Virus record (IMG/VR): IMGVR_UViG_2548876869_000004
Location: 1-13,987 of that record
Length of the DNA: 13,987 nucleotides
Strand: one strand, 5' to 3'
Source: a virus
Lineage: Duplodnaviria; Heunggongvirae; Uroviricota; Caudoviricetes
The notes beneath the pieces were generated by a model. That model had not been told where the DNA came from. It did not search any database and saw only the letters and a program-made list of their open reading frames with translations. The translations under genes were made by a program, and so were the position numbers. Positions 1 to 13,987 of the stretch are shown piece after piece; within the stretch, counting starts at the first letter, position 1; each line of letters opens with the position of its first letter.

Positions 1-45
1 TAACACGAAATCCTGCGAACTGGCAAAATGTAAGTGAATAAAAGT

Positions 46-85
46 AAAAACCCCGTTTGTTGGCAGCAAGCGGGGTTTTGTTTTT
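46..85 (+). terminator. Rho-independent terminator-like hairpin
   Basis: Arms aaaaccccg (47-55) and cggggtttt (71-79) are complementary around a 15-nt loop, followed by T-tract ttttgttttt (76-85). It sits just after an in-frame TAA at 1-3. The A-tract/T-tract symmetry could allow bidirectional function. Confidence 0.4.
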
Positions 86-150
86 ATGGCAGTAAGCTAT
101 GGGAGGCTGCCTTGATTGATTTTAGCAAACTGATTAGGGAGTTGCGACTC

Positions 151-246
151 ATGATTAGTCAATTACCAAACTGGAAATTTTTGCTGGTCTGGAGCATCCC
201 TTTTTTATGGGTAGTATCCCAGTTAATTGTGGCAATTAAGGGGTAG
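151..246 (+). CDS. Very short hydrophobic ORF (31 aa), putative single-TM peptide
   Basis: ATG at 151 preceded by aggga; product MISQLPNWKFLLVWSIPFLWVVSQLIVAIKG has one hydrophobic stretch with a C-terminal lysine. First of four tightly packed mini-ORFs. No recognisable homology. Confidence 0.2.
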   Translation: MISQLPNWKFLLVWSIPFLWVVSQLIVAIKG

Positions 247-248
247 CT

Positions 249-380
249 ATGTCAGACAAACTCATAACGCCGGCAAAGGTCCTGTGTGTGATTGTCGGTA
301 TTTCATTTTCACTAATGCTGGTTGCTCTTTTTCTGTCCCTCGCCTGGGTGATGTTGTCTTCGTCGGGGCTGCTGGGGTGA
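249..380 (+). CDS. Very short hydrophobic ORF (43 aa), putative membrane peptide
   Basis: ATG at 249 with aagggg 6 nt upstream; product MSDKLITPAKVLCVIVGISFSLMLVALFLSLAWVMLSSSGLLG. Its stop overlaps the next ORF's GTG as GTGA (377-380). Confidence 0.25.
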   Translation: MSDKLITPAKVLCVIVGISFSLMLVALFLSLAWVMLSSSGLLG

Positions 381-499
381 CAGTGACTGATGACATCAGC
401 AGAGCGCTGGCTTTTGCTATTAAGTGGGTGGCTGTTGGTATTGCTGTGTCTCCGATGCTGTATGGGCTGGCAAAACTGGTCATTGCGCTGAAATCGTGA
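377..499 (+). CDS. Very short hydrophobic ORF (about 40 aa), paralogue of the 511-597 ORF
   Basis: GTG at 377 (alternative GTG at 383); product ...TDDISRALAFAIKWVAVGIAVSPMLYGLAKLVIALKS. Both peptide and DNA resemble the next mini-ORF (RALAFAIKWVAVGIAV versus [16 protein letters not shown]). Confidence 0.25.
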   Translation: MTVTDDISRALAFAIKWVAVGIAVSPMLYGLAKLVIALKS

Positions 500-510
500 A
501 CTTTAAAAAG

Positions 511-597
511 ATGAGTGCTGAACTTATTCGGGCAATGGCATTTGCCATTCGTATTGTGGCCATTGCTGTTCTGGTCTGGACAATCCGTTGGTGGTGA
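511..597 (+). CDS. Very short hydrophobic ORF (28 aa), paralogue of the 377-499 ORF
   Basis: ATG at 511; product [28 protein letters not shown]. Stop TGA 595-597 lies 1 nt before the Rz ATG at 599. Confidence 0.2.
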
Positions 598-598
598 T

Positions 599-1066
599 AT
601 GAACCGTGTTCTGTGTGTGGTGATTATTGTCCTGCTGGTAGCCTGTGGTGTGCTTAGTCTGGGGCTGAATCATTACCGTGATAACGCCATTACCTACAAA
701 GCCCAGCGCGACAAAAATGTCAGAGAACTGAAGCTGGCGAACGCGGCAATTACTGACATGCAGATGCGTCAGCGTGATGTTGCTGCGCTCGATGCAAAAT
801 ACACGAAGGAGTTAGCTGATGCGAAAGCTGAAAATGATGCTCTTCGTCGCAAGCTTGATAATGGTGGCAGGGTGCTCGTCAAAGGAAAATGCCCTGTGCC
901 ATCCTCAGCCGAAACCTCCAGCGCCTCCGGCATGGGCAATGATGCCACCGTCGAACTCTCTCCAGTTGCTGGACGAAACGTTCTCGGTATCCGGGACGGA
1001 ATTATCCGCGACCAAACAGCACTGAGAACGCTTCAGGAATACATCAGGACGCAATGCCTTCGATGA
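599..1066 (+). CDS. Rz: Rz i-spanin (inner-membrane spanin subunit)
   Basis: From ATG 599: [83 protein letters not shown]... Long stretches match lambda Rz as I recall it ([58 protein letters not shown]). N-terminal TM helix plus coiled-coil periplasmic domain. The ORF-track start at 515 is an upstream in-frame extension. Confidence 0.9.
819..1025 (+). CDS. Rz1: Rz1 o-spanin (outer-membrane lipoprotein), embedded in Rz in the +1 frame
   Basis: [44 protein letters not shown]... has a lipobox (MVAG|C) and a proline-rich stretch, like lambda Rz1 (MLKLKMML...VVGC...PPPPPAW). It lies wholly inside Rz in another frame, the classic embedded spanin arrangement. Confidence 0.85.
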
Positions 1067-1239
1067 TAGCGATAATTTTACTCATCATCCTTCACATCTG
1101 GCTCTGTAGACAGGGTGGTGATCACTTCTGGAGTGAATCCAGATTTAACATCTCATTGCTGATGCTTGATATTGAGCATCTTGCGCGCGGTAAGGGGCTG
1201 CGTTGAGATAAGAGCCAGTCATCACAAACACCAGGATTT

Positions 1240-1266
1240 AGCCTCGCATTCGCGGGGCTTTTTATT
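1240..1266 (+). terminator. Rho-independent terminator-like hairpin downstream of Rz
   Basis: Stem agcctcgc (1240-1247) pairs with gcggggct (1252-1259), with one G-U wobble, around loop attc; followed by ctttttatt T-tract (to 1266). Confidence 0.45.
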
Positions 1267-1284
1267 GCAACAAAGGTAAAGACG

Positions 1285-1572
1285 ATGGATGAAGAATATC
1301 GTAAAGACCTGCAATTGTGGTTTGGCCTGACGCATGCGTCGTTCTGCGTGATGCCGAGAGTATTCATGGAGGCTATGCCGCAAGAATGGCAAGAGAAGAT
1401 GGCGCAGTTGCTTTTTGAGTATGGCGACACGATCAAAACGGATGTCTGCGGAGTTCACTGCTGTTTCGTTACTGCCAAAGACGGCAACAACCGCTTTATG
1501 AGGATGCCAGAAGATATTCTGAACTATCGTCATCCCCGGCGTGAGTTCATCGAATCATTTCTGAAGAAGTAG
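1285..1572 (+). CDS. Hypothetical small cysteine-containing protein (95 aa)
   Basis: ATG 1285; product MDEEYRKDLQLWFGLTHASFCVMPRVFMEAMPQEWQEKMAQLLFEYGDTIKTDVCGVHCCFVTAKDGNNRFMRMPEDILNYRHPRREFIESFLKK has a natural mixed-charge composition and a C-x2-H-C-C cluster. It occupies the lambda bor position but is not Bor-like and is on the opposite strand to lambda bor. I cannot assign a family from memory. Confidence 0.6.
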   Translation: MDEEYRKDLQLWFGLTHASFCVMPRVFMEAMPQEWQEKMAQLLFEYGDTIKTDVCGVHCCFVTAKDGNNRFMRMPEDILNYRHPRREFIESFLKK

Positions 1573-1629
1573 CCATTACAAAGTCTATCTGCGGGGGGCT
1601 TGATAAAGGTGCTTTCACCTCGCTTAGCA

Positions 1630-1638
1630 TGGTATGTT
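1630..1638 (+). promoter_or_regulatory. Possible extended -10 promoter element (TGgTATGTT)
   Basis: tggtatgtt at 1630-1638 resembles an extended -10 (TGnTATAAT) about 28 nt upstream of the ATG at 1666. No convincing -35. Weak, sequence-only call. Confidence 0.2.
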
Positions 1639-1665
1639 CTGACTACCAACTTTTTGGGAGGACAC

Positions 1666-1890
1666 ATGGAACTGATAAATGGACGGCCAGGCAGAGATTT
1701 TATAGTGGGAACATATACCTACTCAGAAATTAAAGATCTTAACTTCATGGCTAAGGAAGAGAAAAGAGCTCGTGAAGAGCTAAAGCATCGGGGTTACGAA
1801 TTGGCGTATATCAAGGCGGACTCTGAATGTAACGGGATGTTTGTCAGGGCGTACCGGGTCTATACTGACAAAGCGCCATCTAATGTCTAA
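1666..1890 (+). CDS. Hypothetical small protein (74 aa), AT-rich cargo gene
   Basis: ATG 1666 with GGAGG at 1657-1661; product MELINGRPGRDFIVGTYTYSEIKDLNFMAKEEKRAREELKHRGYELAYIKADSECNGMFVRAYRVYTDKAPSNV. Visibly lower GC than the structural genes. The TTG-initiated extension from 1600 in the ORF track is unlikely. Confidence 0.55.
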   Translation: MELINGRPGRDFIVGTYTYSEIKDLNFMAKEEKRAREELKHRGYELAYIKADSECNGMFVRAYRVYTDKAPSNV

Positions 1891-1933
1891 ATATACCTCG
1901 GGCGGTTTTTTACGTTCATTACCGTACGCAATT

Positions 1934-1996
1934 ACAGCAGGCATTCATTGAGTGCCTGTGATAATGATTTATCAACGTGCTTGCAAACGGTATTCT
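1934..1996 (+). promoter_or_regulatory. Putative promoter/operator region upstream of the 134-aa gene
   Basis: Inverted repeat cagcaggca (1934-1942) / tgcctgtg (1951-1958) with one bulge, then ttatca (1969-1974), a 16-nt spacer and tattct (1991-1996) as sigma70-like -35/-10, about 30 nt upstream of the GTG at 2026. Confidence 0.25.
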
Positions 1997-2025
1997 AGAC
2001 CTCCAATTATCCTAAGGAGGTTTTT

Positions 2026-2430
2026 GTGGTTAAAAATTTAGAATACATGAAGGGGATGCTTGAGGTATTTTTGAAAGCGAAAACTCCCTTTATATCTACA
2101 AAAGACTTAGCTAATGCGGGGTACGATATCTGCTCGAATGAAGGGATGTTTCATTATCTACTTCTTATTGAGCAAGGTTATATCAGTAATAAAGATCTAA
2201 TAACGGATGACATAACTAAACTGGGCTACATGCGCCATTGTGGCCATATGCTAGATATGGGTACCGACGTGCGACTATCTGCGCAGGGACAAGAATTCGC
2301 CCAGGCATTAAATGAACCTACGGTTTTTGAGAAATTAAAGTCAATGAGCGATGCCCCTTTGAGTACAATCAAAGATGTTGGGCTGGAGTTAACGAAGGCC
2401 TATTTAAAGAAGAAATTTGGCCTCGAGTAA
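2026..2430 (+). CDS. Hypothetical protein (134 aa), AT-rich cargo gene immediately upstream of cos
   Basis: GTG start 2026 with strong SD AAGGAGG (2014-2020); product MVKNLEYMKGMLEVFLKAKTPFISTKDLANAGYDICSNEGMFHYLLLIEQGYISNKD...KKKFGLE. Clearly AT-rich relative to flanking phage genes. Family unassigned; a small helical or winged-helix-type fold is speculation only. Confidence 0.65.
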   Translation: MVKNLEYMKGMLEVFLKAKTPFISTKDLANAGYDICSNEGMFHYLLLIEQGYISNKDLITDDITKLGYMRHCGHMLDMGTDVRLSAQGQEFAQALNEPTVFEKLKSMSDAPLSTIKDVGLELTKAYLKKKFGLE

Positions 2431-2612
2431 AATTTCTACCCTCACGAGTTAAGTTGTTTTGTGATGGTTATTCGCAATGAATATCTTTAGCCACTGGCAT
2501 TTGCTGGTGGTTTTTTTATGCGCATCCCTCGCGCACCACAAAGGGAGTCTTTCAGTAGTGATTCTGAATATCAGTGTGATAAACGTATTTGACAATCATT
2601 ATCATTTTTGGT

Positions 2613-2683
2613 GGGTCCTTTCCGGCGATCCGACAGGTTACGGGGCGGCGACCTCGCGGTTTTTCACTATTTATGAAAATTTT
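2613..2683 (+). other. cos: cos site: cosQ-proximal region, cosN (12-nt cohesive end GGGCGGCGACCT at 2643-2654) and start of cosB
   Basis: gggtcctttccggcgatccgacaggttacg|gggcggcgacct|cgcggtttttcactatttatgaaaatttt is near-identical to the phage lambda right-end/left-end junction as I recall it (...GGGTCCTTTCCGGTGATCCGACAGGTTACG + GGGCGGCGACCTCGCGGGTTTTCGCTATTTATGAAAATTTT). It sits about 180 bp upstream of Nu1, as in lambda. Confidence 0.85.
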
Positions 2684-2750
2684 TCAGGGAAAATCGTGTC
2701 GGTACTTCTCGAATATAACTTTTTGTTTTTTTTAATATTGCATCCGTAAA

Positions 2751-2805
2751 GGTCCGACATGAAAGTGTCCGAAAATGCCTTTTTCTGGCGTTTTCATGTC
2801 GGGCC
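2751..2805. promoter_or_regulatory. Inverted repeat within cosB, candidate terminase small-subunit binding sites
   Basis: Arm ggtccgacatgaaa (2751-2764) and arm tttcatgtcgggcc (2792-2805) are reverse complements at 13 of 14 positions, separated by 27 bp, just upstream of the Nu1 start at 2831. Lambda R2/R1 are similarly inverted. Confidence 0.4.
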
Positions 2806-2830
2806 TTGTATTTGATAATGGGTTGTTTTC

Positions 2831-3379
2831 ATGAAGGTTAATAAAAAGAGGCTTGCCGAAATTTTCAACGTGGACCCGCGGACGATTGAACGCTGGCAGT
2901 CTCAGGGACTCCCTTGCGCCTCCAAAGGTAGTAAGGGCATTGAATCTGTATTTGATACTGCCATGGTAATTCAGTGGTATGCGCAGAGGGAAACTGATAT
3001 CGAAAACGAAAAGCTCCGCAAAGAACTGGACGATTTGCGTGCGGCAGCGGAGTCAGATTTACAACCCGGCACCATTGACTATGAACGCTACCGGCTCACA
3101 AAAGCGCAGGCAGATGCGCAGGAACTGAAAAATGCCCGTGAAGACGGAGTAGTGCTGGAAACTGAACTGTTTACCTTCATTCTGCAACGTGTGGCACAGG
3201 AGATTTCGGGGATACTTGTGCGTGTGCCGTTGACATTACAGCGTAAATATCCGGACATTTCACCATCACACCTTGATGTGGTGAAAACTGAAATCGCGAA
3301 AGCCTCCAATGTTTCAGCTAAGGCCGGTGAAAACGTGGGCGGGTGGATCGATGATTTCAGACGCGCAGAAGGCAGCTAA
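2831..3379 (+). CDS. nu1: Terminase small subunit (gpNu1)
   Basis: [28 protein letters not shown]...[60 protein letters not shown] closely parallels lambda Nu1 (MEVNKKQLADIF...[48 protein letters not shown]). N-terminal winged HTH. Directly downstream of cos. Confidence 0.95.
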
Positions 3380-5279
3380 TGCAGCCGGTGCGATAGCAAC
3401 AGGGCTTTTATCTCTCATTATTCCTGTTCCACTGACGACAGTTCAGTGGGCCAATAAACATTATTACCTTCCTAAAGAGTCGTCTTATACCCCGGGGCGG
3501 TGGGAAACACTGCCGTTTCAGGTTGGCATCATGAACTGTATGGGCAACGATTTGATTCGCACGGTTAACCTGATTAAATCTGCCCGTGTTGGTTATACAA
3601 AGATGTTGCTGGGAGTGGAGGCTTATTTTATTGAGCATAAATCACGCAACAGCCTTCTTTTTCAGCCCACGGACTCAGCTGCTGAAGATTTTATGAAATC
3701 TCATGTTGAGCCAACGATAAGGGAGGTTCCTGCGTTGCTGGAGCTGGCTCCATGGTTCGGAAGAAAACACCGCGATAATACGCTCACCCTGAAGCGTTTT
3801 TCCTCCGGTGTGGGTTTCTGGTGTCTGGGGGGAGCGGCAGCAAAAAACTACCGTGAAAAATCCGTGGATGTGGTCTGTTATGACGAGCTTTCCTCGTTCG
3901 AACCGGATGTTGAAAAAGAGGGTTCGCCAACCCTGCTGGGGGATAAACGTATTGAGGGCTCTGTATGGCCCAAATCCATTCGCGGCTCGACGCCTAAAAT
4001 CAAAGGCTCCTGCCAGATCGAAAAAGCCGCTAACGAGTCGGCACACTTCATGCGTTTTTATGTGCCCTGTCCGCACTGTGGGGAGGAGCAGTATCTGAAA
4101 TTTGGCGATGAGTCCACGCCTTTTGGGCTTAAATGGGAGAAGGACAGCCCCGAAAGCGTTTTCTACCTCTGTGAGCATCATGGCTGCGTGATCCATCAGT
4201 CTGAACTGGACCAGAGTAACGGGCGGTGGATCTGTGAAAACACGGGCATGTGGACCCGTGACGGTCTGACGTTTTTCAGCGCTGCGGGTAATGAAATTCC
4301 GCCGCCGCGCTCCATCACTTTCCATATCTGGACGGCGTACAGTCCGTTCACCACCTGGGTACAGATTGTCTATGACTGGCTGGATGCACTGAAAGATCCC
4401 AACGGCCTGAAAACCTTTGTGAACACCACGCTGGGCGAGACCTGGGAAGAGGCTGTGGGCGAAAAACTCGATCACCAGATACTGATGGATAAGGTTGTGC
4501 GTTACACGGCGGCGGTGCCTGCCCGGGTGGTTTATCTGACGGCGGGCATTGACTCGCAGCGAAACCGTTTTGAGATGTATGTCTGGGGATGGGCTCCGGG
4601 AGAGGAAGCCTTTCTGGTGGATAAAATCATCATTATGGGGCGTCCCGATGAGGAAGAGACGCTGTTACGTGTGGATGCGGCGATCAACAAAAAATACCGC
4701 CATGCAGACGGAACCGAAATGACTATTTCCCGTGTCTGCTGGGACATCGGGGGGATCGATGGCGAAATCGTTTATCAGAGGTCAAAAAAACACGGTGTTT
4801 TCCGGGTGCTGCCGGTAAAAGGCGCATCTGTCTATGGCAAGCCGGTGATCACCATGCCAAAAACCCGCAATCAGCGGGGCGTGTATCTGTGTGAAGTGGG
4901 GACGGACACCGCAAAAGAAATTCTCTATGCCCGTATGAAAGCCGATCCCACGCCTGCGGATGAAGCCACGTCGTATGCCATCCGTTTTCCTGATGATCCG
5001 GAGATTTTTTCGCAGACAGAGGCGCAGCAACTGGTCGCGGAAGAGCTTGTGGAGAAGTGGGAAAAAGGAAAGATGCGTCTGCTGTGGGATAACAAAAAGC
5101 GGCGTAACGAAGCGCTGGACTGCCTGGTGTATGCCTACGCGGCATTACGTGTGTCCGTGCAACGCTGGCAGCTTGATCTGGCTGTACTGGCAAAATCCCG
5201 GGAAGAAGAGACGACCCGGCCAACCCTTAAAGAACTGGCAGCGAAGCTGTCCGGAGGAGTGAATGGTTACAGTCGCTGA
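3351..5279 (+). CDS. A: Terminase large subunit (gpA)
   Basis: From ATG 3351 (overlapping the Nu1 3' end as in lambda): MISDAQK...[25 protein letters not shown]...[22 protein letters not shown]...[14 protein letters not shown]...KRRNEALDC. Recognisable lambda gpA motifs throughout. The ORF-track start at 3309 is an upstream extension. Confidence 0.95.
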
Positions 5280-5469
5280 ACTGCAGGCGCTGCGTCAGGC
5301 GCGCCTTGATTTATTAACCGGTAAACGGGTGGTGTCTGTCCAGAAAGATGGTCGCAGAATTGAATATACGGCGGCTTCTCTGGATGAGCTTAACCGGGCG
5401 ATCAATGATGCGGAGTCGGTACTGGGGACAACCCGGCGTCGCCGTCGTCCGCTGGGAGTGAGGTTATGA
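5263..5469 (+). CDS. W: Head-tail joining / head completion protein gpW
   Basis: 68 aa; LLTGKRVVSVQKDGRRIEYTAASLDEL resembles lambda gpW ([27 protein letters not shown]). Start overlaps the A stop; stop overlaps the B start (ATGA). Confidence 0.9.
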   Translation: MVTVAELQALRQARLDLLTGKRVVSVQKDGRRIEYTAASLDELNRAINDAESVLGTTRRRRRPLGVRL

Positions 5470-7058
5470 AACGAACGCCTGTCCTGATTGATGTGAACGG
5501 CGTTCCGCTTCGTGAGAGTCTCAGCTACAACGGGGGCGGTGCAGGATTTGGCGGGCAAATGGCTGAGTGGTTGCCACCGGCGCAGAGTGCCGATGCGGCC
5601 CTGCTGCCCGCGTTGCGTCTGGGGAATGCCCGGGCAGATGATCTGGTGCGCAATAACGGAATAGCGGCTAATGCGGTGGCTCTGCATAAGGATCACATTG
5701 TCGGGCATATGTTTCTGATCAGCTACCGTCCGAACTGGCGCTGGCTGGGGATGCGGGAGACCGCAGCAAAAAGCTTTGTCGATGAGGTGGAGGCGGCCTG
5801 GTCGGAATACGCCGAAGGGATGTTTGGCGAGATCGACGTGGAAGGAAAACGCACGTTCACGGAATTTATCCGTGAAGGTGTGGGCGTTCATGCGTTTAAC
5901 GGCGAAATCTTTGTGCAGCCGGTCTGGGATACGGAAACCACGCAGTTATTCCGTACGCGTTTTAAAGCCGTGAGTCCGAAACGGGTGGACACGCCTGGAC
6001 ACGGTATGGGGAACCGTTTTCTGCGGGCCGGTGTGGAGGTCGATCGATATGGCCGTGCCGTCGCGTACCATATTTGTGAGGATGATTTTCCGTTCTCTGG
6101 TAGTGGACGATGGGAACGGATCCCGCGTGAACTTCCCACCGGGCGTCCGGCTATGCTGCATATTTTCGAGCCGGTGGAGGACGGGCAGACCCGTGGGGCT
6201 AATCAGTTTTACAGCGTCATGGAACGGCTGAAGATGCTCGATTCCCTGCAGGCAACACAGCTTCAGTCGGCCATAGTGAAGGCGATGTATGCAGCGACGA
6301 TTGAAAGTGAACTTGATACCGAAAAGGCCTTTGAATATATCGCCGGCGCGCCACAGGAGCAGAAGGATAATCCGCTTATTAATATTCTGGAGAAGTTCTC
6401 CAGCTGGTATGACACGAATCACGTGACGCTGGGCGGTGTCAAAATTCCGCACCTTTTCCCTGGTGATGATCTGAAACTGCAGACAGCGCAGGATTCAGAC
6501 AATGGATTTTCGGCGCTTGAACAGGCGCTGCTGCGGTATATCGCCGCCGGTCTTGGCGTTTCCTACGAACAGTTGTCCCGTGATTACTCGAAGGTCAGTT
6601 ACTCAAGTGCCCGCGCCTCCGCCAATGAGTCGTGGCGCTATTTTATGGGGCGGCGAAAATTTATTGCGGCCCGACTGGCCACGCAGATGTTTTCCTGCTG
6701 GCTGGAAGAGGCACTTCTTCGGGGGATTATTCGTCCGCCACGGGCACGTTTTGATTTTTATCAGGCGCGATCAGCCTGGTCACGGGCAGAGTGGATTGGT
6801 GCCGGAAGAATGGCCATTGACGGGCTCAAGGAAGTCCAGGAATCAGTGATGCGCATTGAGGCCGGACTGAGCACGTATGAGAAAGAGCTGGCGCTGATGG
6901 GCGAGGATTATCAGGACATTTTCCGCCAGCAGGTCAGGGAATCTGCAGAGCGGGAAAAAGCCGGACTCTCACGCCCGGTGTGGATAGCGCAGGCGTATCA
7001 GCAGCAGATAGCGGAGAGTCGCAGGCCGGAAGAGGAGACAACACCACGTGAGACGTAA
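5466..7058 (+). CDS. B: Portal protein (gpB)
   Basis: 530 aa with extended lambda gpB-like blocks: GNARADDLVRNNG, FEPVEDGQTRGANQFYSVMERLKMLDSLQATQLQSAIVKAMYAATIESELDT, LLRYIAAGLGVSYEQLSRDYS, WIGAGRMAIDGLKEVQESVMRIEAGLSTYEKE. Confidence 0.95.
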   Translation: MKRTPVLIDVNGVPLRESLSYNGGGAGFGGQMAEWLPPAQSADAALLPALRLGNARADDLVRNNGIAANAVALHKDHIVGHMFLISYRPNWRWLGMRETAAKSFVDEVEAAWSEYAEGMFGEIDVEGKRTFTEFIREGVGVHAFNGEIFVQPVWDTETTQLFRTRFKAVSPKRVDTPGHGMGNRFLRAGVEVDRYGRAVAYHICEDDFPFSGSGRWERIPRELPTGRPAMLHIFEPVEDGQTRGANQFYSVMERLKMLDSLQATQLQSAIVKAMYAATIESELDTEKAFEYIAGAPQEQKDNPLINILEKFSSWYDTNHVTLGGVKIPHLFPGDDLKLQTAQDSDNGFSALEQALLRYIAAGLGVSYEQLSRDYSKVSYSSARASANESWRYFMGRRKFIAARLATQMFSCWLEEALLRGIIRPPRARFDFYQARSAWSRAEWIGAGRMAIDGLKEVQESVMRIEAGLSTYEKELALMGEDYQDIFRQQVRESAEREKAGLSRPVWIAQAYQQQIAESRRPEEETTPRET

Positions 7059-8553
7059 TCTTTCACACATTATTGCCGCAGCATTCAATGAACCGCTGCT
7101 TCTGGAGCCCGCCTATGCGCGGGTTTTCTTTTGCGCGCTCGGGCGCGAGATGGGGGCAGCAAGTCTTTCGGTACCACAACAACAGGTACAGCTTGATGCT
7201 CCCGGAATGCTGGCTGAAACGGACGAGTACATGGCCGGAGGTAAACGACCGGCCCGTGTTTACCGGGTGGTGAACGGTATTGCGGTACTGCCGGTGACCG
7301 GCACGCTGGTGCACCGGCTGGGCGGTATGCGGCCATTTTCCGGAATGACAGGCTATGACGGCATTGTCGCCTGTCTTCAGCAGGCAATGGCAGATAGCCA
7401 GGTGCGGGGCGTACTGCTGGACATTGACAGTCCGGGCGGGCAGGCCGCCGGCGCGTTTGACTGCGCTGACATGATTTACCGCCTCCGTCAGCAGAAGCCG
7501 GTCTGGGCACTGTGCAATGACACGGCCTGTTCTGCAGCCATGCTGCTGGCGTCGGCCTGCTCCCGACGGCTGGTTACTCAGACATCCCGTATCGGCTCCA
7601 TTGGCGTGATGATGAGCCATGTCAGCTATGCCGGTCATCTGGCGCAGGCCGGGGTGGATATCACGCTGATTTATGCCGGGGCGCACAAGGTGGATGGCAA
7701 TCAGTTTGAAGCCTTACCGGCAGAGGTGCGTCAGGACATGCAGCAGCGGGTTGATGCGGCGCACCGGATGTTTGCCGAAAAAGTGGCGATGTATACGGGG
7801 CTGTCTGTGGAAGCTGTCACGGGGACAGAGGCTGCCGTTTTTGAAGGTCAGTCCGCTATTAAGGCCGGACTGGCGGATGAATTAATCAATGCGTCGGATG
7901 CCATCAGCGTGATGGCTGCGGCGCTGAACACTCATGATACAGGAGGCACTATGCCGCAATTAACTGCAACGGAAGCTGCCGCGCAGGAGAACCAGCGAGT
8001 GATGGGGATCCTGACGTGTCAGGAAGCGAAAGGACGTGAACAGCTTGCCACGATGCTGGCAGGACAACAGGGCATGAGCATTGAACAGGCCCGGGCGATT
8101 CTGGCCGCGGCGGCACCACAGCAGCCGGTGGCATCCGCGCAGAGTGAAGCCGATCGCATTATGGCGTGTGAAGAAGCGAAAGGTCGTGAACAACTGGCGG
8201 CAACGCTGGCGGCGATGCCGGAGATGACGGTGGAAAAAGCCCGCCCGATCTTGGCTGCCTCACCGCAGGCGAATGCCGGGCCCTCACTTCGTGATCAGAT
8301 CATGGCCCTGGATGAGGCAAAAGGGGCAGAAGCGCAGGCTGAAAAACTGGCGGCCTGCCCGGGAATGACCGTGGAGAACGCCCGGGCTGTGCTGGCTGCG
8401 GGATCAGGTAAGGCCGAACCGGTCTCTGCATCCACAACCGCCCTGTTTGAACATTTCATGGCGAATCATTCACCGGCAGCGGTGCGGGGTGGCGTGTCAC
8501 AGACGTCAGCAGACGGTGATGCGGACGTGAAAATGCTCATGGCCATGCCATGA
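7048..8553 (+). CDS. C: Head maturation protease / scaffold fusion (gpC-like, S49/ClpP-type) with Nu3-like C-terminal region
   Basis: GTG start 7048 overlapping the B stop; AAFNEPLLLEPAYARVFFCAL, VNGIAVLPVTG, MTGYDGIV, DSPGG.AAGAFDCADMI, KPVWAL, SRRLVTQTSRIGSIGVMMSH, ITLIYAGAHKVDGN, YTGLSV, GLADEL all parallel lambda gpC. The C-terminal part holds three tandem copies of a Nu3-like motif. Confidence 0.9.
   Translation: MRRNLSHIIAAAFNEPLLLEPAYARVFFCALGREMGAASLSVPQQQVQLDAPGMLAETDEYMAGGKRPARVYRVVNGIAVLPVTGTLVHRLGGMRPFSGMTGYDGIVACLQQAMADSQVRGVLLDIDSPGGQAAGAFDCADMIYRLRQQKPVWALCNDTACSAAMLLASACSRRLVTQTSRIGSIGVMMSHVSYAGHLAQAGVDITLIYAGAHKVDGNQFEALPAEVRQDMQQRVDAAHRMFAEKVAMYTGLSVEAVTGTEAAVFEGQSAIKAGLADELINASDAISVMAAALNTHDTGGTMPQLTATEAAAQENQRVMGILTCQEAKGREQLATMLAGQQGMSIEQARAILAAAAPQQPVASAQSEADRIMACEEAKGREQLAATLAAMPEMTVEKARPILAASPQANAGPSLRDQIMALDEAKGAEAQAEKLAACPGMTVENARAVLAAGSGKAEPVSASTTALFEHFMANHSPAAVRGGVSQTSADGDADVKMLMAMP
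7951..8553 (+). CDS. nu3: Putative Nu3-like scaffolding protein from an internal in-frame start within C
   Basis: In-frame ATG at 7951 preceded by AGGAGG (7941-7946); downstream ENQRVMGILTCQEAKGREQ matches the lambda Nu3 N-terminal region (AENSRIMGILNCEEAHGREEQ). A nested scaffold gene is established for lambda C/Nu3; here it is inferred from the RBS plus homology. Confidence 0.5.
   Translation: MPQLTATEAAAQENQRVMGILTCQEAKGREQLATMLAGQQGMSIEQARAILAAAAPQQPVASAQSEADRIMACEEAKGREQLAATLAAMPEMTVEKARPILAASPQANAGPSLRDQIMALDEAKGAEAQAEKLAACPGMTVENARAVLAAGSGKAEPVSASTTALFEHFMANHSPAAVRGGVSQTSADGDADVKMLMAMP
7996..8420 (+). repeat. Intragenic tandem triplication (about 141-159 nt units) encoding three Nu3-like scaffold repeats
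   Basis: Three successive units: RVMGILTCQEAKGREQLATMLAGQQGMSIEQARAILAAAAPQQ / RIMACEEAKGREQLAATLAAMPEMTVEKARPILAASPQAN / QIMALDEAKGAEAQAEKLAACPGMTVENARAVLAAGSGKA, starting at about 7996, 8155 and 8296. The DNA is diverged but clearly related (for example gaagcgaaagg(a/t)cgtgaaca). Confidence 0.6.
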
Positions 8554-8589
8554 AGTCAGTGCTGACCATCAATATGAGGTTTTAACAAA

Positions 8590-8937
8590 ATGGTGACGAA
8601 AACCATCACTGAACAGCGTGCGGAAGTACGTATTTTTGCTGGTAATGATCCGGCTCATACCGCCACAGGCAGCAGCGGGATTTCTTCTGCAACACCGGCT
8701 CTGACGCCCCTGATGCTGGATGAAGCCACCGGGAAACTGGTGGTCTGGGATGGACAGAAAGCCGGTAGTGCGGTTGGCATACTGGTACTGCCGCTTGAAG
8801 GCACAGAGACGGTGCTGACCTATTACAAGTCGGGGACCTTTGCGACGGAGGCAATCCGCTGGCCTGACAGTGTGGATGAACACAAAAAGGCAAATGCCTT
8901 TGCCGGCACAGCCCTGAGTCACGCGGCTCTGCCGTAA
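8590..8937 (+). CDS. D: Head decoration protein (gpD)
   Basis: 115 aa; NDPAHTAT, TPLMLD, KLVVWDG, AVGILV, YYKSGTF, KKANAFAGTA mirror lambda gpD (SDPAHTATA, MTPLMLD, KLVAWDG, AVGILA, FYKSGTF, KKRTAFAGTA). Confidence 0.9.
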   Translation: MVTKTITEQRAEVRIFAGNDPAHTATGSSGISSATPALTPLMLDEATGKLVVWDGQKAGSAVGILVLPLEGTETVLTYYKSGTFATEAIRWPDSVDEHKKANAFAGTALSHAALP

Positions 8938-8945
8938 CACGTTAT

Positions 8946-8965
8946 CAGGCCACCATGGTGGCCTG
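8946..8965. repeat. Perfect 20-bp palindrome (caggccacca|tggtggcctg) in the D-E intergenic region
   Basis: The sequence at 8946-8965 is its own reverse complement. It lies between the D stop (8937) and the E start (8995). Confidence 0.6.
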
Positions 8966-8994
8966 ACTGATTTCTGAATGAAAGGAACTGATTT

Positions 8995-10023
8995 ATGGGA
9001 TTGTTTACGACCCGCCAGTTACTCGGTTATACCGAACAAAAAGTTAAATTCCGTGCGCTGTTTCTGGAGCTGTTTTTCCGCCGTACGGTGAATTTCCACA
9101 CCGAAGAGGTGATGCTGGACAAAATTACCGGAAAAACGCCGGTGGCGGCCTATGTCTCCCCGATCGTTGAAGGAAAAGTGCTGCGCCATCGTGGTGGTGA
9201 AACCCGCGTGTTGCGTCCGGGCTACGTCAAGCCGAAACACGAATTTAATTACCAGCAGGCGGTTGAGCGCCTTCCTGGTGAAGATCCGGCTCAGCTGAAC
9301 GACCCGGCCTACCGTCGTCTGCGTATCATTACCGATAACCTCAAACAGGAAGAGCACGCCATTGTCCAGGTGGAAGAAATGCAGGCGGTGAATGCCGTGC
9401 TGTATGGCAAATACACCATGGAAGGGGATCAGTTTGATACTGTCGAGGTGGATTTCGGGCGCTCTGAAGGAAATAACATTGAGCAGGCTGACGGTAAAAA
9501 ATGGTCTGAGCAGGACCGTGATACGTTTGATCCGACGCATGATATTGACCTCTACTGCGATCAGGCCAGCGGCCTTGTGAATATCGCCATTATGGACGGT
9601 ACGGTCTGGCGTCTGCTGAATGGCTTTAAGCTGTTCCGCGAAAAACTGGATACCCGTCGCGGCTCAAATTCACAACTCGAAACGGCAGTGAAAGATCTGG
9701 GCGCAGTGGTGTCCTTCAAGGGGTATTACGGCGATCTGGCCATTGTGGTGGCGAAAACGTCTTATGTGGCAGAGGACGGTACCGAAAAACGTTATCTGCC
9801 GGAGGGCATGCTGGTGCTGGGGAATACGGCGGCAGAGGGGATTCGTTGCTATGGTGCCATTAAGGATGCACAGGCGTTGTCTGAAGGAGTGGTGGCTTCT
9901 TCCCGTTACCCGAAACACTGGCTGACCGTGGGCGATCCGTCCTGTGAATTCACCATGACGCAGTCCGCTCCGCTGATGGTGCTGCCGGATCCGGATGAGT
10001 TTGTGGTGGTACAGGTGAAATAA
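8995..10023 (+). CDS. E: Major capsid protein (gpE)
   Basis: 342 aa; YVSPIV.G.V.R.RGG, PGYVKPKHE, RRLP.EDP, DPAYRR.RII, VEEMQAV.AVL.GKYTM.G, KLDTRRGSNS.LETAVKDLG, YPK.W.T.GDP..EFTM.QSAPLM all match lambda gpE. Confidence 0.95.
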   Translation: MGLFTTRQLLGYTEQKVKFRALFLELFFRRTVNFHTEEVMLDKITGKTPVAAYVSPIVEGKVLRHRGGETRVLRPGYVKPKHEFNYQQAVERLPGEDPAQLNDPAYRRLRIITDNLKQEEHAIVQVEEMQAVNAVLYGKYTMEGDQFDTVEVDFGRSEGNNIEQADGKKWSEQDRDTFDPTHDIDLYCDQASGLVNIAIMDGTVWRLLNGFKLFREKLDTRRGSNSQLETAVKDLGAVVSFKGYYGDLAIVVAKTSYVAEDGTEKRYLPEGMLVLGNTAAEGIRCYGAIKDAQALSEGVVASSRYPKHWLTVGDPSCEFTMTQSAPLMVLPDPDEFVVVQVK

Positions 10024-10030
10024 TCCGTGA

Positions 10031-10060
10031 GCGGGGGCGAAATGCCCCCGTGTCTTTTTT
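10031..10060 (+). terminator. GC-rich hairpin plus T-tract immediately after the major capsid gene
   Basis: cgggggc (10032-10038) pairs with gcccccg (10044-10050) around loop gaaat, followed by tgtctttttt (10051-10060). Lies between the E stop and the FI RBS. Confidence 0.4.
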
Positions 10061-10074
10061 CACAGGAGGCTGAG

Positions 10075-10458
10075 ATGGCAACAAAAGAAGAAAATCTGAA
10101 TCGTCTTCGTCAACTGGCTGGCCTGCTGGGGCGCGAGGCGGATATGTCGGGGAGTGCTGCGGATATTGCTCAACGTGTGTCTGAGTGGGAAGAGGAGCTT
10201 GCTGTTTCCCCGGAGGGCATTATGCACTCTGATGAGAGCGGGGCTGATCAAAATCACACAGACGATGGTGAGCAGTTGAACAACACGGATGCTCCGGATG
10301 ATGTTAAAGCCGTCCGGGTACGGAAGTGCCTGCAAGTAATGGGGTATTGCCCGGAGACAGGTCGTCCCGTTGAGCTGGCGTTACGGGGTATGCGTGTTCT
10401 GGTGCCATCATCACTGGCAACGGCCATGATACAGCACGGAACGGCTGAATATGCGTGA
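10075..10458 (+). CDS. FI: DNA-packaging accessory protein gpFI-like
   Basis: ATG 10075 preceded by AGGAGG; MATKEENLNRLRQLAGLLGREADMSGSAADIAQRVSEWEEEL... has a highly acidic linker region and sits in the lambda FI position between E and FII. Similarity to lambda FI is modest. The ORF-track start at 10027 lies inside the upstream hairpin. Confidence 0.8.
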   Translation: MATKEENLNRLRQLAGLLGREADMSGSAADIAQRVSEWEEELAVSPEGIMHSDESGADQNHTDDGEQLNNTDAPDDVKAVRVRKCLQVMGYCPETGRPVELALRGMRVLVPSSLATAMIQHGTAEYA

Positions 10459-10804
10459 TTTTCAGAATGCCTTTGATGCTGCCCTCGCCGGGGTAGACAG
10501 TACGATCGTTGAAGTGATGGGGCTCTGTGCGCAGTTCACCTCGGGGGCACAGTGTGGCAGCGAAGTTCAGGGGGTTTTTGACGATCCGGAGTCGCTGGGG
10601 TTTGCCGGTGGCGGGGTCCGTATTGAAGGAAGCAGCCCGTCATTATTTGTGCGGACGGATACGGTTCGTGCCGTGCGGCGTGGTGACACGCTGACCATTA
10701 ATGGTGAGATATTCTGGGTGGATCGTGTTTCTCCGGATGACGGGGGCAGCTGTTATCTCTGGCTCAACCGTGGTCAACCACCCGCAGTTAACCGGCGACG
10801 ATAA
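10451..10804 (+). CDS. FII: Head-tail connector protein gpFII
   Basis: 117 aa; GVFDDPE, GGGVRIEGSSPSLFVRTD.VR..RRGDTLTI, FWVDRVSPDDGGSCYLWL.RG.PPAVNRRR is near-identical to the lambda gpFII C-terminal half. Confidence 0.9.
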   Translation: MRDFQNAFDAALAGVDSTIVEVMGLCAQFTSGAQCGSEVQGVFDDPESLGFAGGGVRIEGSSPSLFVRTDTVRAVRRGDTLTINGEIFWVDRVSPDDGGSCYLWLNRGQPPAVNRRR

Positions 10805-10819
10805 ACGCAGGGTGAAATT

Positions 10820-11353
10820 ATGGCGATAAAAGGGCTTGATCAGGCGATTGACAATCTGAGCCGGGTTCGTAAAAACGCCATTCCGGCGGCTTCAGCAATG
10901 GCCATTAACCGCGTGGCCACAACGGCGATTAATCAGTCTTCATCACAGGTTGCCCGGGAGACAAAGGTTCGCCGGAAACTGGTTAAGGAACGGTCCAGAC
11001 TGAAACGGGCGACGGTCAGAAATCCGAATGCCAGAATTATCGTTAACCGCGGTGATCTCCCTGTGATTAAGCTGGGGATCAGGATGCTGGGGCGTCGCCC
11101 GAACAGCATACTTAAAGCCGGTCAGCATCGGTATCAGCGGGCATTTATTCAGCGATTAAAAAATGGTCGCTGGCATGTCATGCAGCGTGTGGCCGGGAAA
11201 AACCGTTACCCCATTGATGTGGTGAAAATCCCGATGGCGGCCCCACTGAAACAGGCATTTGATGAGAATGTTGACCGTATCCGGCGTGAACGCCTGCCTA
11301 AAGAACTGGCATACGCGCTGAAACAACAACTGAGGATTGCAATAAAACGATGA
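10820..11353 (+). CDS. Z: Tail completion protein gpZ
   Basis: 177 aa; MAIKGLDQAIDNLSR, AMAINRVA, SQVARETKVRRKLVKER.RLKRATV.NP.ARI.VNRGDLPVIKLG, QRLKNGRWHVMQRVAGKNRYPIDVVKIPMA, RIRRERLPKEL match lambda gpZ. Confidence 0.9.
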   Translation: MAIKGLDQAIDNLSRVRKNAIPAASAMAINRVATTAINQSSSQVARETKVRRKLVKERSRLKRATVRNPNARIIVNRGDLPVIKLGIRMLGRRPNSILKAGQHRYQRAFIQRLKNGRWHVMQRVAGKNRYPIDVVKIPMAAPLKQAFDENVDRIRRERLPKELAYALKQQLRIAIKR

Positions 11354-11745
11354 AACACACTGACATTCGTGCCGCAGTGCTGGATGCACTCGAGCAGCAT
11401 GAACACGGGGCGACGCTGTTTGATGGTCGCCCCGTTGTTTTTGACGAAGAGGATTTTCCTGCGATCGCGGTTTATCTGACGGATGCAGAGTATACCGGTG
11501 AAGAGCTGGATGCAGATACCTGGCGGGCCACGCTGCATATTGAGGTGTTTTTACCGGCACAGGTACCGGATTCAGAGCTTGAACAGTGGATGGAAAGCCG
11601 GATTTACCCGGCGATGACCGCGATCCCGGCACTGGCAGGACTGATTACCACGATGGTTACGCAGGGCTATGAGTATCGTCGTGATGACGATATGGCGTTA
11701 TGGAGTTCTGCAGATCTGACTTATTCCATTACATACGAGATGTGA
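11350..11745 (+). CDS. U: Tail terminator protein gpU
   Basis: 131 aa; [90 protein letters not shown] match lambda gpU. Start overlaps the Z stop (ATGA). Confidence 0.9.
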
Positions 11746-11752
11746 GGACGAT

Positions 11753-12505
11753 ATGGCAACACCAAATCCCCTTGAGCCGGTAAAAGGTGCCGGTACCACT
11801 CTGTGGGTTTACAACGGCAAGGGTGATGCTTATGCAAACCCGTTGTCAGACGATGACTGGCAGCGACTGGCTAAGGTGAAGGATCTGACGCCGGGCGAGA
11901 TGACGGCAGAATCCTACGATGATAACTACCTGGATGATGAAGACGCGGACTGGACCGCGACCGGGCAGGGGCAGAAATCTGCAGGTGATACCAGTTTTAC
12001 GCTGGCCTGGAAACCGGGAGAGGAAGGCCAGAAAGGGCTTATAGGCTGGTTTGAAAGCGGCGATGTCCGGGCCTATAAAATCCGTTTTCCGAATGGCACG
12101 GTGGATGTGTTTCGTGGCTGGGTCAGCAGTATCGGTAAGGCCGTGACGGCGAAAGAAGTGATCACCCGCACGGTGAAAGTCACTAACGTGGGTAAACCTT
12201 CTGTAGCGGAAGAACGCAGCAAAATTACGCCGGTCAGTGCGATTAAGGTGACGCCGACATCCGGTACGGTGGCAAAAGGGAAAACAACCACCCTGACGGT
12301 TTCTTTTGAGCCGGAAAGTGCAACCGACAAGACGTTCAGAGCGGTTTCCGCCGATCCGTCGAAAGCCACCATTAGTGTGAAAGATATGACAATTACGGTA
12401 AACGGCGTGGCGACAGGTAAGGTGCAGATCCCTGTGGTGAGCGGAAATGGTCAGTTCGCCGCAGTGGCTGAAGTCACCGTTACTGAAGCGGGCGCTGCAG
12501 GGTAA
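11753..12505 (+). CDS. V: Major tail tube protein (gpV) with C-terminal Ig-like domain
   Basis: 250 aa; [113 protein letters not shown] match lambda gpV. Confidence 0.95.
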
Positions 12506-12518
12506 ACGGAGGTAATAC

Positions 12519-12821
12519 ATGTTTCTGAAAACAGAACAATTTGAATATAACGGTGTGTCTGTCACGCTTTCCGAATTGTCTGCGCTGCAGCGTATCGAGC
12601 ATCTTGCCCTCCTGAAACGGCGTGCAGAACAGGCAGAATCCTGCGGCAACCTGCTCACCACCTGGCCTGCCGATGCCATTGCCCGGGCGGAAGACGTGGT
12701 GTTGTGCCTGTCCGGGATGATCGAAGCTGTTCGTCCGGATACTGATATTACTGAAGTGGCGAAAAATAACACGCTGACTGATGATGATTTTTCTGCGGGA
12801 AAGTCTTCGACGGCGAGCTGA
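12519..12821 (+). CDS. G: Tail assembly chaperone gpG (zero-frame product)
   Basis: 100 aa; MFLKTEQFEYNGVSVTLSELSALQRIEHLALLKRRAEQAES matches the lambda gpG N-terminus (MFLKTESFEHNGVTVTLSELSALQRIEHLALMKRQAEQAES). It is shorter than lambda G as I recall it (about 140 aa). Confidence 0.85.
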   Translation: MFLKTEQFEYNGVSVTLSELSALQRIEHLALLKRRAEQAESCGNLLTTWPADAIARAEDVVLCLSGMIEAVRPDTDITEVAKNNTLTDDDFSAGKSSTAS

Positions 12822-13261
12822 ACTTTGCCCTCAGACTGGCGCGTGAGATGGGGAGACCCGACTGGCGCGCCATGCTTGCCGGGATGACATCCACCGAATA
12901 TGCCGACTGGCACCGTTTTTACCGCACGCATTATTTTCAGGATACCCAGCTGGATATGCATTTTTCCGGGCTGACGTACGCTGTACTCAGCCTGTTTTTT
13001 TGCGATCCGGATATGCATCCCTCTGATTTCAGTCTGCTTGTCCCCCGGCATGAGGAAGAGCAGGTGGAGAGGCCGGATGAGGACAAAATGCTGATGCAGA
13101 AAGCGGCAGGACTTGCCGGAGGCGTCCGGTTCGGTGGGGACGGAGGGCGCGATATTTTATCGTCTGCGGATGTGGCGGATGTCATGGTGGATGATGCCGC
13201 ATTAATGATGGCTTCAGCGGGGATTCCGGGAGGTGCGAGATATGTCCCAGCCGGTTGGTGA
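12519..13261 (+). CDS. G-T: gpG-T tail assembly chaperone fusion produced by a programmed -1 ribosomal frameshift
   Basis: Slippery heptamer G GGA AAG at 12797-12803 is in the correct zero-frame register. After the -1 slip the reading continues ...ELNFALRLAREMGRPDWRAMLAGMTSTEYADWHRFYRTHYFQD..., closely matching lambda gpT (MGRPDWRAMLAGMSSTEYADWHRFY.THYF), ending at TGA 13259-13261. Confidence 0.8.
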
Positions 13262-13987
13262 TCTTGTTATTGACCTGAGTCTGGATGCTGTCCGTTTCGA
13301 TGAGCAGATGAGCCGGGTAAGGCGTCATTTTTCAGGCCTGGATACCGACGCCAGAAAAACCGCCAGTGCTGTTGAACAGGGCCTGAGCCGCCAGGCGCTG
13401 GCTGCACAAAAAGCCGGGATTTCCGTCGGGCAGTATAAAGCGGCCATGCGAACCCTGCCCGCACAGTTTACGGATATCGCCACGCAGCTTGCAGGTGGTC
13501 AGAATCCCTGGCTGATCCTGCTGCAACAGGGCGGTCAGGTGAAGGACTCCTTCGGCGGGATGATCCCCATGTTCAGGGGGCTCGCCGGTGCGATCACCCT
13601 GCCGATGGTCGGGGTCACCTCGCTGGCGGTGGCGACAGGTGCGCTGGTGTACGCCTGGTACCAGGGAGATTCCACGCTTTCAGCGTTTAATAAAACCCTG
13701 GTTCTTTCCGGTAATCAGTCCGGACTGACTGCCGATCGTATGCTGACTCTCTCAAGAGCCGGGCAGGCAGCAGGGCTGACGTTTAACCAGGCGAGAGAGT
13801 CACTGGCAGCCCTGGTGAATGCCGGTGTGCGTGGTGGTGAACAGTTTGATGCCATCAACCAGAGTGTCGCGCGTTTTGCGTCTGCATCCGGTGTGGAGGT
13901 GGATAAAGTCGCTGAAGCCTTCGGGAAGCTGACCACTGACCCGACATCGGGACTGATGGCGATGGCGCGCCAGTTCCGTAACGTGAC
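13242..13987 (+). CDS. H: Tail tape measure protein gpH (N-terminal part; runs off the 3' end of the window)
   Basis: ATG 13242 with GGGAGG upstream; MSQPVGDLVIDLSLDAVRFDEQMSRVRRHFSG...QALAAQKAGISVGQYKAAMR.LPAQFTD.ATQLAGGQ.PWLILLQQGGQVKDSFGGMIPMFRGLAGAITLPMVG is near-identical to the lambda gpH N-terminus. No stop before the window end. Confidence 0.9.
   Translation, partial: MSQPVGDLVIDLSLDAVRFDEQMSRVRRHFSGLDTDARKTASAVEQGLSRQALAAQKAGISVGQYKAAMRTLPAQFTDIATQLAGGQNPWLILLQQGGQVKDSFGGMIPMFRGLAGAITLPMVGVTSLAVATGALVYAWYQGDSTLSAFNKTLVLSGNQSGLTADRMLTLSRAGQAAGLTFNQARESLAALVNAGVRGGEQFDAINQSVARFASASGVEVDKVAEAFGKLTTDPTSGLMAMARQFRNV

Follow-up and report, generated by a model that had tools for sequence, protein, structure and literature searches.

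In lambda and DLP12 the lysis genes stand in the order S-R-Rz/Rz1, with Rz1 embedded in Rz and with neither a hairpin nor a small open reading frame (ORF) between the endolysin gene R and Rz. The cassette of phage 21 has a holin of the S21 family, an R21-type signal-arrest-release (SAR) endolysin and likewise embedded spanin genes, and a survey of 279 Shiga toxin (Stx) phages found that nearly all have a predicted pinholin, an R21-like SAR endolysin and Rz/Rz1 (PMC8136144). In the classical Stx phages (the Stx1-converting AP005153/NC_004913, Stx2 phage 86, the PA-series and YYZ-2008), the order is R, a hairpin, an antirepressor gene (ant), one small ORF and Rz. Here we compare with these systems the lysis genes at the start of a 13,987-nt stretch of DNA from a virus of the Caudoviricetes (IMG/VR record IMGVR_UViG_2548876869_000004, positions 1 to 13,987; hereafter the window), in which the spanin genes Rz and Rz1 lie roughly half a kilobase downstream of a terminator-like hairpin.

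We estimate a probability of about 80% that this region is the normal right half of a lysis cassette of the phage-21/Stx-phage type, carried by an apparently complete lambdoid prophage of Escherichia coli O104:H4. As predicted from the sequence, the order is an S21-like pinholin, a DUF1327 gene, an R21-like SAR endolysin, the hairpin, four small ORFs that we call A, B, C and D, and embedded Rz/Rz1. The junction between R and Rz is a variable slot: in a few relatives R abuts Rz, and in most the two are joined by a hairpin and one to four small ORFs. We see no evidence of decay in the predicted cassette, whose layout is ordinary, common and already present in annotated functional phages. Window positions 1-1300 occur at 100% identity and full length in 27 complete E. 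coli genomes, mostly of the O104:H4 outbreak lineage; the reference used here is NC_018658.1 (strain 2011C-3493), and L004 denotes that record in window orientation, so that an L004 coordinate is the window coordinate plus 6000. The features of the region are as follows.

Window 1-46, + strand: 3' untranslated tail of the R gene
Window 47-85, + strand: intrinsic-terminator-like hairpin (arms 47-62 and 64-79, loop of 1-3 nt) and T tract
Window 112-246, + strand: ORF A, 44 aa from TTG112 or 31 aa from ATG151; phrog_6632 (the A/E family)
Window 249-380, + strand: ORF B, 43 aa; phrog_4906
Window 383-499, + strand: ORF C, 38 aa, GTG start; phrog_1115/3246/4493
Window 511-597, + strand: ORF D, 28 aa, allelic partner of C; phrog_1115/3246/4493
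Window 599-1066, + strand: Rz, inner-membrane spanin, 155 aa; PF03245 Phage_lysis, E=1e-31, over 1-125 of 126; phrog_13 over 1-154 of 154
Window 819-1025, + strand: Rz1, outer-membrane lipoprotein spanin, 68 aa; PF06085, E=3.8e-21; phrog_3198, full length
Window 1240-1265, + strand: second terminator-like hairpin (stem 1240-1259, -15.2 kcal/mol, z = -3.4) and T tract
L004 4354-4569: holin S, 71 aa, class II; PF04971 (S21 family), E=9e-33, over 1-63 of 64
L004 4574-5380: DUF1327 (YdfR family) insert between holin and endolysin, a 268-aa ORF with the domain at its N-terminus
L004 5423-5956: endolysin R, 177 aa; lysozyme PF00959, E=3.4e-24

Measured against their family models, none of the four lysis genes (S, R, Rz and Rz1) is shortened, and all are predicted to be intact. 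The holin is 100% identical to those of phiSTEC1589-Stx1c and vB_EcoS-783R2. The endolysin, read from its translation, begins YGLSAAVLALIAAGAPAP, a Gly/Ala-rich and weakly hydrophobic segment, and its residues E35, D44 and T50 (Glu-8aa-Asp-5aa-Thr) have the spacing of the R21 SAR endolysin, for which we used the catalytic residues reportedly described by Sun et al. in 2009; the enzyme is a predicted R21-type SAR endolysin. Rz carries an N-terminal transmembrane helix. Rz1 is embedded in the +1 frame of Rz with AAGGAG 7 nt upstream of its start, and direct reading of its translation gives the lipobox VAGC and a proline-rich mature part.

An earlier, sequence-only reading of the window had placed Rz at 599 and Rz1 at 819, and both are confirmed as intact genes with family matches from end to end. 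It had also taken the TAA at positions 1-3 for the stop codon of a gene and described the spanins as separated from any endolysin or holin. Neither statement survives: the endolysin ends at a TAA at L004 5954-5956, 44 nt before window position 1 and in another frame than the TAA at 1-3, which leaves 90 nt between its end and the hairpin, and the holin stands 0.85 kb upstream of it. The upstream search for S- and R-like genes that it had recommended gives a class II holin and a lysozyme directly upstream. Its suggestion of a non-canonical cassette, with holin and endolysin upstream and other genes in between, was thus essentially right, the parts being an S21-type holin, an R21-type endolysin and the small ORFs. 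As the observation that would count against its concern over lysis competence, it had named an intact holin-endolysin pair ending at the TAA at 1-3 in an arrangement conserved among related functional phages; an intact pair and a layout conserved in functional relatives are what we find, with the pair ending 44 nt upstream and not at 1-3.

The lysis genes are not contiguous as in lambda, S and R being 0.85 kb and R and Rz 0.64 kb apart, and such spacing is the rule among the relatives. The cassette resembles that of phage 21 in its S21-family holin, in the N-terminal segment and E35/D44/T50 of its endolysin and in its embedded Rz/Rz1; it differs in having DUF1327 between S and R, and a hairpin and four small ORFs between R and Rz. 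The holin N-terminus (L004 4354-4365) is a further difference. It reads MYQM, which keeps both Met codons of the S21-type dual start with no basic residue between them, whereas S21 begins MKSM; the antiholin form may therefore behave differently here. In related phages the slot between S and R holds DUF1327 plus a DUF1823 gene on the opposite strand.

The hairpin that the sequence-only reading had placed at 46-85 is real (positions 47-79 plus the T tract). Its 16-nt arms are 88% complementary, with 15 pairs, and are followed by GTTTTT; the RNA fold has -24.2 kcal/mol against -11.5 +/- 2.6 for shuffled sequences (z = -4.87), and none of 200 shuffles was as stable. An A tract precedes it, so that it could act in both directions. 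Among the relatives the stem is nearly invariant, with variation mostly in the loop (20 distinct versions), and the sequences split by class straight after the T tract, which makes the hairpin the left border of the variable slot between R and Rz. The classes that carry Ant have an unrelated hairpin and T tract at the same position (-18.8 kcal/mol, z = -5.5), which argues that a terminator-like element is wanted at this site. Changes outside the loop are single wobbles or occasional mismatches, with no covariation signal; the functional case for the hairpin thus comes from its conservation and from the unrelated hairpin of the ant classes, not from covariation. An Rfam scan of positions 1-1400 gave no match at E<=1. 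The 46-nt tail of R that leads into the hairpin holds a conserved block, GGATAACACGAAATCCTGCGAACTGGC, with the TAA of positions 1-3 inside it; across 41 distinct sequences this block (window 1-30, L004 5995-6030) is better conserved than the 20 nt before it.

The distance of about 500 bp between hairpin and spanins stands as a distance, at about 510 nt from hairpin to Rz, and falls as a spacer: the four ORFs, all on the strand of Rz, cover 471 of the 513 nt between the T tract (85) and Rz (599), or 92%. They are separated by 2 nt (A-B), 2 nt (B-C) and 11 nt (C-D), and D is 1 nt from Rz. ORF A has a Shine-Dalgarno sequence, GGGAGG, at 101-106, 5 nt before TTG112. ORF D stops with TGA at 595-597, 1 nt from the Rz ATG, and its last codons, GGTGGTGA, are at the same time the Shine-Dalgarno sequence of Rz.

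We compared the interval from the R stop to the Rz start across 84 loci, namely 80 viral contigs with an endolysin at least 95% identical and four annotated loci. The interval could be measured in 80 of them, and three more have the hairpin and could not be read through to Rz. The measured intervals fall into these length classes.

303-304 nt, 22 loci: one 45-aa ORF, 'E', with an A-related N-terminus and the end IRWW as in D
341-342 nt, 3 loci: one D-type ORF of 37-50 aa
444 nt, 1 locus: C-D
492-495 nt, 20 loci: full-length C, then B
610 nt, 1 locus (phiSTEC1589-Stx1c): A, B and a frameshifted C, no D
648 nt, 26 loci: A-B-C-D, as in the window
984/999 nt, 5 loci: a different hairpin, an Ant-type antirepressor gene and a B-type ORF
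1419/1432 nt, 2 loci: further ORFs

A hairpin stands about 90 nt after the R stop in all 80 measured intervals. At the other extreme is locus L077, in which the GTG start of Rz overlaps the R stop (GTGA), so that hairpin and small ORFs are both missing. Between one and the same pair of R and Rz families, the number of small ORFs ranges from zero to four. In all classes the stop of the last small ORF overlaps the Rz start or precedes it by 1-2 nt, either as …TGGTGGTGA-N-ATG or as GGGGTGAAC with a GTG start; the exception is L082 (1432 nt), where only the junction motif is kept at the Rz start. With lambda and DLP12 the window shares gene order and embedded spanins, and L077, with an endolysin of the same family as the window's, matches their layout exactly; the hairpin and the small ORFs between R and Rz set the window apart from them. 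The classical Stx phages are closer: their R and Rz belong to the same families, a hairpin again stands about 90 nt behind R, an ORF of 43-49 aa from the B family abuts Rz, and the late operon is Q-dependent, as we predict it to be here. They differ in the sequence of their hairpin and in carrying an Ant/KilAC antirepressor gene where the window has A, C and D.

The array of four ORFs is common. At a coverage of at least 80% it is present in 589 of 5,426 complete E. coli genomes, with an identity of at least 99% in 579 records, and parts of it occur in 1,749 of the 5,426. It is found in vB_EcoS-783R2 and its relatives and also, behind an additional ORF of 696 bp, in the complete genome of PhiR5_1 (listed host, E. 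coli C). A variant of the array is carried by phiSTEC1589-Stx1c, a phage that was obtained by mitomycin C induction, taken through three rounds of plaque purification and found to form lysogens in MG1655 and MC1061 (PMC12029490). Since this phage has neither an intact C nor D, C and D at least are dispensable for plaque formation. The order R, ant, small ORF, Rz occurs in 252 phage records, including the O157:H7 Stx1-converting phage and Stx2 phage 86. A hairpin and 0.3-1.4 kb between R and Rz are thus the norm in this group of phages and compatible with lysis.

These comparisons bear directly on the alternative that the sequence-only reading had raised, of a rearranged or decaying cassette in which a terminator and 500 bp uncouple Rz/Rz1 from S and R, leaving a prophage that is not lysis-competent. 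The strong hairpin between R and Rz invites this interpretation, as do inserts in both S-R and R-Rz and the pseudogene flag on the DUF1327 gene. We nevertheless consider it very improbable, given that the four lysis genes are complete by comparison with their families, that an interval of hairpin plus small ORFs is seen in 80 of the 84 related loci and the four-ORF array in 589 genomes, that the layout is found in induced, plaque-forming phages and that the classical Stx phages have a larger insert still. Spanin defects in lambda do not, in any case, block lysis under standard laboratory conditions.

Late transcription offers a reason why a co-directional hairpin need not matter. The gene for a Q-type antitermination protein lies 4.2 kb upstream of S on the same strand, and RNA polymerase modified by Q is terminator-resistant. 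The 8.2-kb late region has 16 terminator-like sites against 7.5 +/- 2.6 in shuffles, and co-directional hairpins mark module borders at L004 1698-1719, 4286-4314, 6047-6079, 7240-7259 and 8489-8512, the last three being window 47-79, 1240-1259 and 2489-2512. One is just downstream of Q, one directly upstream of the holin gene, and the others follow R, follow Rz and precede Nu1. Were Rz uncoupled by the hairpin that follows R, then the holin should be uncoupled just as much by the one before S. We predict no sigma-70-like promoter on the + strand at 80-600 and no terminator-like site between the array and Rz; the next after Rz is at 1240-1259. This second hairpin closes a unit made up of the small ORFs and Rz/Rz1.

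We therefore propose the following course of events. After induction, Q-modified polymerase would transcribe the whole late region and run through the R hairpin, just as it would have to run through at least four more on the same strand on its way from Q to the terminase genes. Translation of A, B, C, D and Rz would follow in series, and the junctions, in which stop and start overlap or lie 1-2 nt apart, could couple translation of Rz to that of the preceding small ORF. The small peptides would insert into the inner membrane. In the lysogen, the hairpins would halt unmodified polymerase.

Each of A-D has one strongly hydrophobic stretch, with a maximal 19-residue Kyte-Doolittle mean of 1.9-2.9, and we predict single-pass membrane peptides. 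Current annotation covers them in part: RefSeq lists B, D and a longer ORF sharing the C stop as hypothetical proteins, and leaves A unannotated. Our literature search turned up nothing on the small-ORF proteins, their PHROG families or an insert between R and Rz. We also tried three simple origins or identities for the array and rejected them. Duplication would have left repeats, and a repeat search of 1-1300 gave only two-copy matches of 12-19 nt, possibly due to chance; derivation of B from a duplicated Rz N-terminus finds no convincing similarity to the Rz N-termini of all alleles beyond a 12-nt match; and a type I toxin-antitoxin module (Hok, Ldr, Ibs, TisB) does not fit ORFs placed serially in an operon, with no Rfam match in 1-1400 at E<=1. 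The sole antisense promoter-like site, at 255-226, is within chance expectation (3 found against 2.0 expected).

There is coding selection on C and, less strongly, on B. Between E. coli and Salmonella, the 39-codon core of the C family differs by 60-80% at synonymous and 10-15% at non-synonymous sites, a ratio of non-synonymous to synonymous change (pN/pS) of 0.17-0.24, while the other two frames give 0.7-7; the family is under purifying selection. Its relatives in the databases keep AFAIKWVAVGIAVSPxLYGLAKLIIALKS almost unchanged and vary at the N-terminus. For the B family pN/pS is 0.22-0.6 in most pairs, with two of 15 pairs at about 1 or higher; its third frame exceeds 1, and its second frame (0.3-2.6) overlaps, so that the frames are less cleanly separated than for C. 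A length of 43 aa is kept in most full-length B variants, which are 62-98% identical and all from E. coli. D gives 0.4-0.5, and A and E are too diverged from each other to inform.

For B there is also published evidence of translation. XECs191 of O157:H7 Sakai was described as a novel small gene from transcriptome and ribosome profiling data (Hucker et al. 2017, PMC5597208). This homologue from the B family, MMGWLMISDKLITLVKSLCVLVGISFLVMLVAIFFSTAWRVLTLSGLVG, is about 65% identical to B of the window, and its sequence is identical to the B-type ORF abutting Rz in the examined loci that carry ant. In LB it has a transcriptome RPKM (reads per kilobase per million) of 30.0, a translatome RPKM of 12.6, a ribosome coverage value of 0.43 and a coverage of 0.55; a classifier calls it 'real', and it is a predicted inner-membrane protein with one helix (PMC5597208). 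XECs191 was published only as a translated ORF, without a function or a link to a lysis cassette (PMC5597208). Taken together, we regard B and C as very probably real genes, and are inclined, with distinctly less assurance, to say the same of A and D.

The three families are distributed differently. In each of the 34 distinct intervals with a B, and in seven more contigs (L095-L101), B immediately precedes Rz; in every context sampled its stop overlaps the Rz start or lies 1-2 nt from it. The C family occurs in front of Rz even where the holin is of the lambda-S type and the endolysin a GH19 enzyme (L086), and also behind Ant (L085) and behind a lysozyme gene without Rz (L087); outside lysis cassettes it lies downstream of tail-fibre genes (L088-L091). 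The latter sites include, in Salmonella prophages, L088 3001-3201, L090 2856-3168 and L091 165-528, with tandem pairs of two family members in L090 and L091. Relatives of the A/E family (50-60% identity) lie among tail genes in Pseudomonas phage YMC11/02/R656 (L093 2498-2644) and among baseplate genes in Salmonella phage SEN34 (L094 1995-2132), two unrelated phages, in both cases adjoining other unannotated mini-ORFs. Protein P0117 is a C/D hybrid, showing that C and D recombine.

The array looks like optional, accessory, moron-like cargo that rides the late transcript, and not like a core component of lysis. The moron concept is said to go back to Juhala and Hendrix, with lambda bor and lom and HK97 gp15 as reported examples. 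Like the lambdoid morons, the array consists of optional genes between conserved late genes, has a lower GC content than its flanks and would encode small membrane proteins. The classical ones are unlike it in having their own promoter and a downstream terminator and in being expressed from the prophage; here we found no promoter, and the terminator is upstream, with the next one after Rz.

As to what the peptides do, we give roughly equal weight to an accessory role in lysis or spanin function, to membrane cargo and to little beyond translational coupling. They could be accessory lysis factors that tune pinholin triggering, release of the SAR endolysin or spanin activity, B acting with Rz; this is a possible reading that we think unlikely. 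It would explain why they lie inside the cassette, on the late strand, with coupled junctions and no promoter of their own that we could find, why B directly precedes Rz in every sampled context, and why C precedes Rz even behind a different holin/endolysin pair (L086); the Ala/Gly-rich helices of C and D, on direct reading, also recall SAR domains. It sits poorly with finding members of C/D and A/E at a distance from any lysis gene, in tail-fibre and baseplate regions, with the frameshifted C and missing D of the viable phiSTEC1589-Stx1c, with relatives such as L077 that have no small ORF at all, and with the lack of similarity to known antiholins or releasins in Pfam, NCBIfam and PHROGs scans; mosaic inheritance may be all that lies behind the linkage to Rz. 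Cargo that works on the membrane of the host to the benefit of the lysogen or the infected cell, for example by superinfection exclusion, seems rather doubtful to us. HK97 gp15, T4 Imm and Cor-type proteins are examples of such exclusion. Presence and absence between otherwise conserved neighbours would suit cargo of this kind, as would a GC content of 0.46 against 0.52-0.55 in the flanks (array 0.459, A 0.385, R 0.549 and Rz 0.519, a modest difference), the same families in tail-gene slots typical of morons, sometimes as tandem pairs, and the low but detectable transcripts and footprints of XECs191 in uninduced Sakai. That signal could equally come from spontaneous induction, however, no promoter is predicted between the hairpin and A and no terminator between the array and Rz, and none of A-D, E and the longer C matched a PADLOC model at E<=0.1.

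The ORFs could also be non-functional scars of illegitimate recombination at a mosaic joint, or at most leader ORFs for coupling to Rz. Hybrids of C and D and reshuffled orders (A-B-C-D, C-B, C-D) do exist, C and D are dispensable, C of the window is a truncated member of its family, and the RWW-stop with which D and E end falls on the Rz Shine-Dalgarno sequence. We hold this to be improbable, because the C core is under purifying selection across Escherichia and Salmonella with the other frames at 0.7 or higher, selection on B is similar but weaker in most pairs, ORF length is conserved, and the ORFs are intact in every combination except that of phiSTEC1589. At the other end is the tentative proposal, which we would not favour at present, that the slot is a recombining array of three families (A/E, B and C/D) of inner-membrane peptides of 28-60 aa, late proteins in their own right that act during the final minutes of infection, B being a dedicated partner of Rz. 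Under that proposal the late role might be to tune the pinholin, SAR-endolysin release or spanin assembly, or possibly to block re-entry of phage DNA.

Several observations weigh against the reading we prefer, a normal cassette whose slot holds small genes. In the Pfam, NCBIfam, PHROGs and PADLOC scans, A-D, the long C and E match only PHROG families without known function. ORF C lacks the N-terminus of the full form (48-60 aa) and starts with GTG, and the Shine-Dalgarno sequence of D itself is weak. The array is almost invariant within the 648-nt class, so that selection on A and D is poorly resolved. The ribosome signal of XECs191 is low and from uninduced cultures, and may reflect a spontaneously induced fraction. 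Between S and R, the DUF1327 gene is a pseudogene according to the NCBI annotation pipeline (PGAP) and no known lysis gene, and a scan with a strict sigma-70 consensus for the late promoter and qut site in the 1.8 kb downstream of Q gave no promoter.

Judged by its sequence, then, the lysis cassette of the O104:H4 prophage is complete and of the common Stx-phage type, and neither its hairpin nor its gap between R and Rz should be taken as decay; co-directional terminators are normal in late operons antiterminated by Q. Within this well-studied cassette are mini-genes that are conserved, under selection and probably translated, and that no one has yet characterised. Were the array to have a late role, it would be an unrecognised accessory layer, in about a third of E. 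coli genomes, on a lysis system thought to be fully enumerated.

The prophage adjoins ompW. Its early side encodes an integrase, excisionase, exonuclease, dicB, two helix-turn-helix regulators, replication genes, hokD, RusA and the Q-type antitermination protein. On the same strand after Q follow a DNA methyltransferase, three tRNA genes, DUF3927 and a SASA-family esterase (NanS-p type), and then the lysis genes, with iraM on the opposite strand among the genes between Q and the lysozyme. The tRNA-Ile, tRNA-Arg, tRNA-Arg and iraM genes (L004 593-842 and 1754-2089) occupy the position that stx has in Stx phages, so that the prophage has the late-region layout of a Stx phage without stx. Downstream of the lysozyme gene, the window carries Rz, several ORFs without known role, a lambda-type Nu1/A terminase, portal and head genes.

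Around the end of Rz we note three further features. A mosaic joint lies inside Rz/Rz1 (window 600-1265): positions 1-850 are about 96% identical to phages of the vB_EcoS-569R3 type, and positions 662-1265 are 95-98% identical to the P22-like phage HK620 and to PhiR70_1. The 3' end of Rz overlaps the beginning of a 50-aa hydrophobic ORF at 1054-1206, which RefSeq annotates and which matches phrog_11822 over its full length; this ORF closes shortly before the hairpin at 1240. The stretch from Rz to the terminase genes has four ORFs at 1285-2746 (phrog_3527, 6100, 585 and 11159) of no known function and with no Pfam or PADLOC match; the GC content of this segment is 0.43 against 0.55 in the head genes, which suggests further moron-like cargo.

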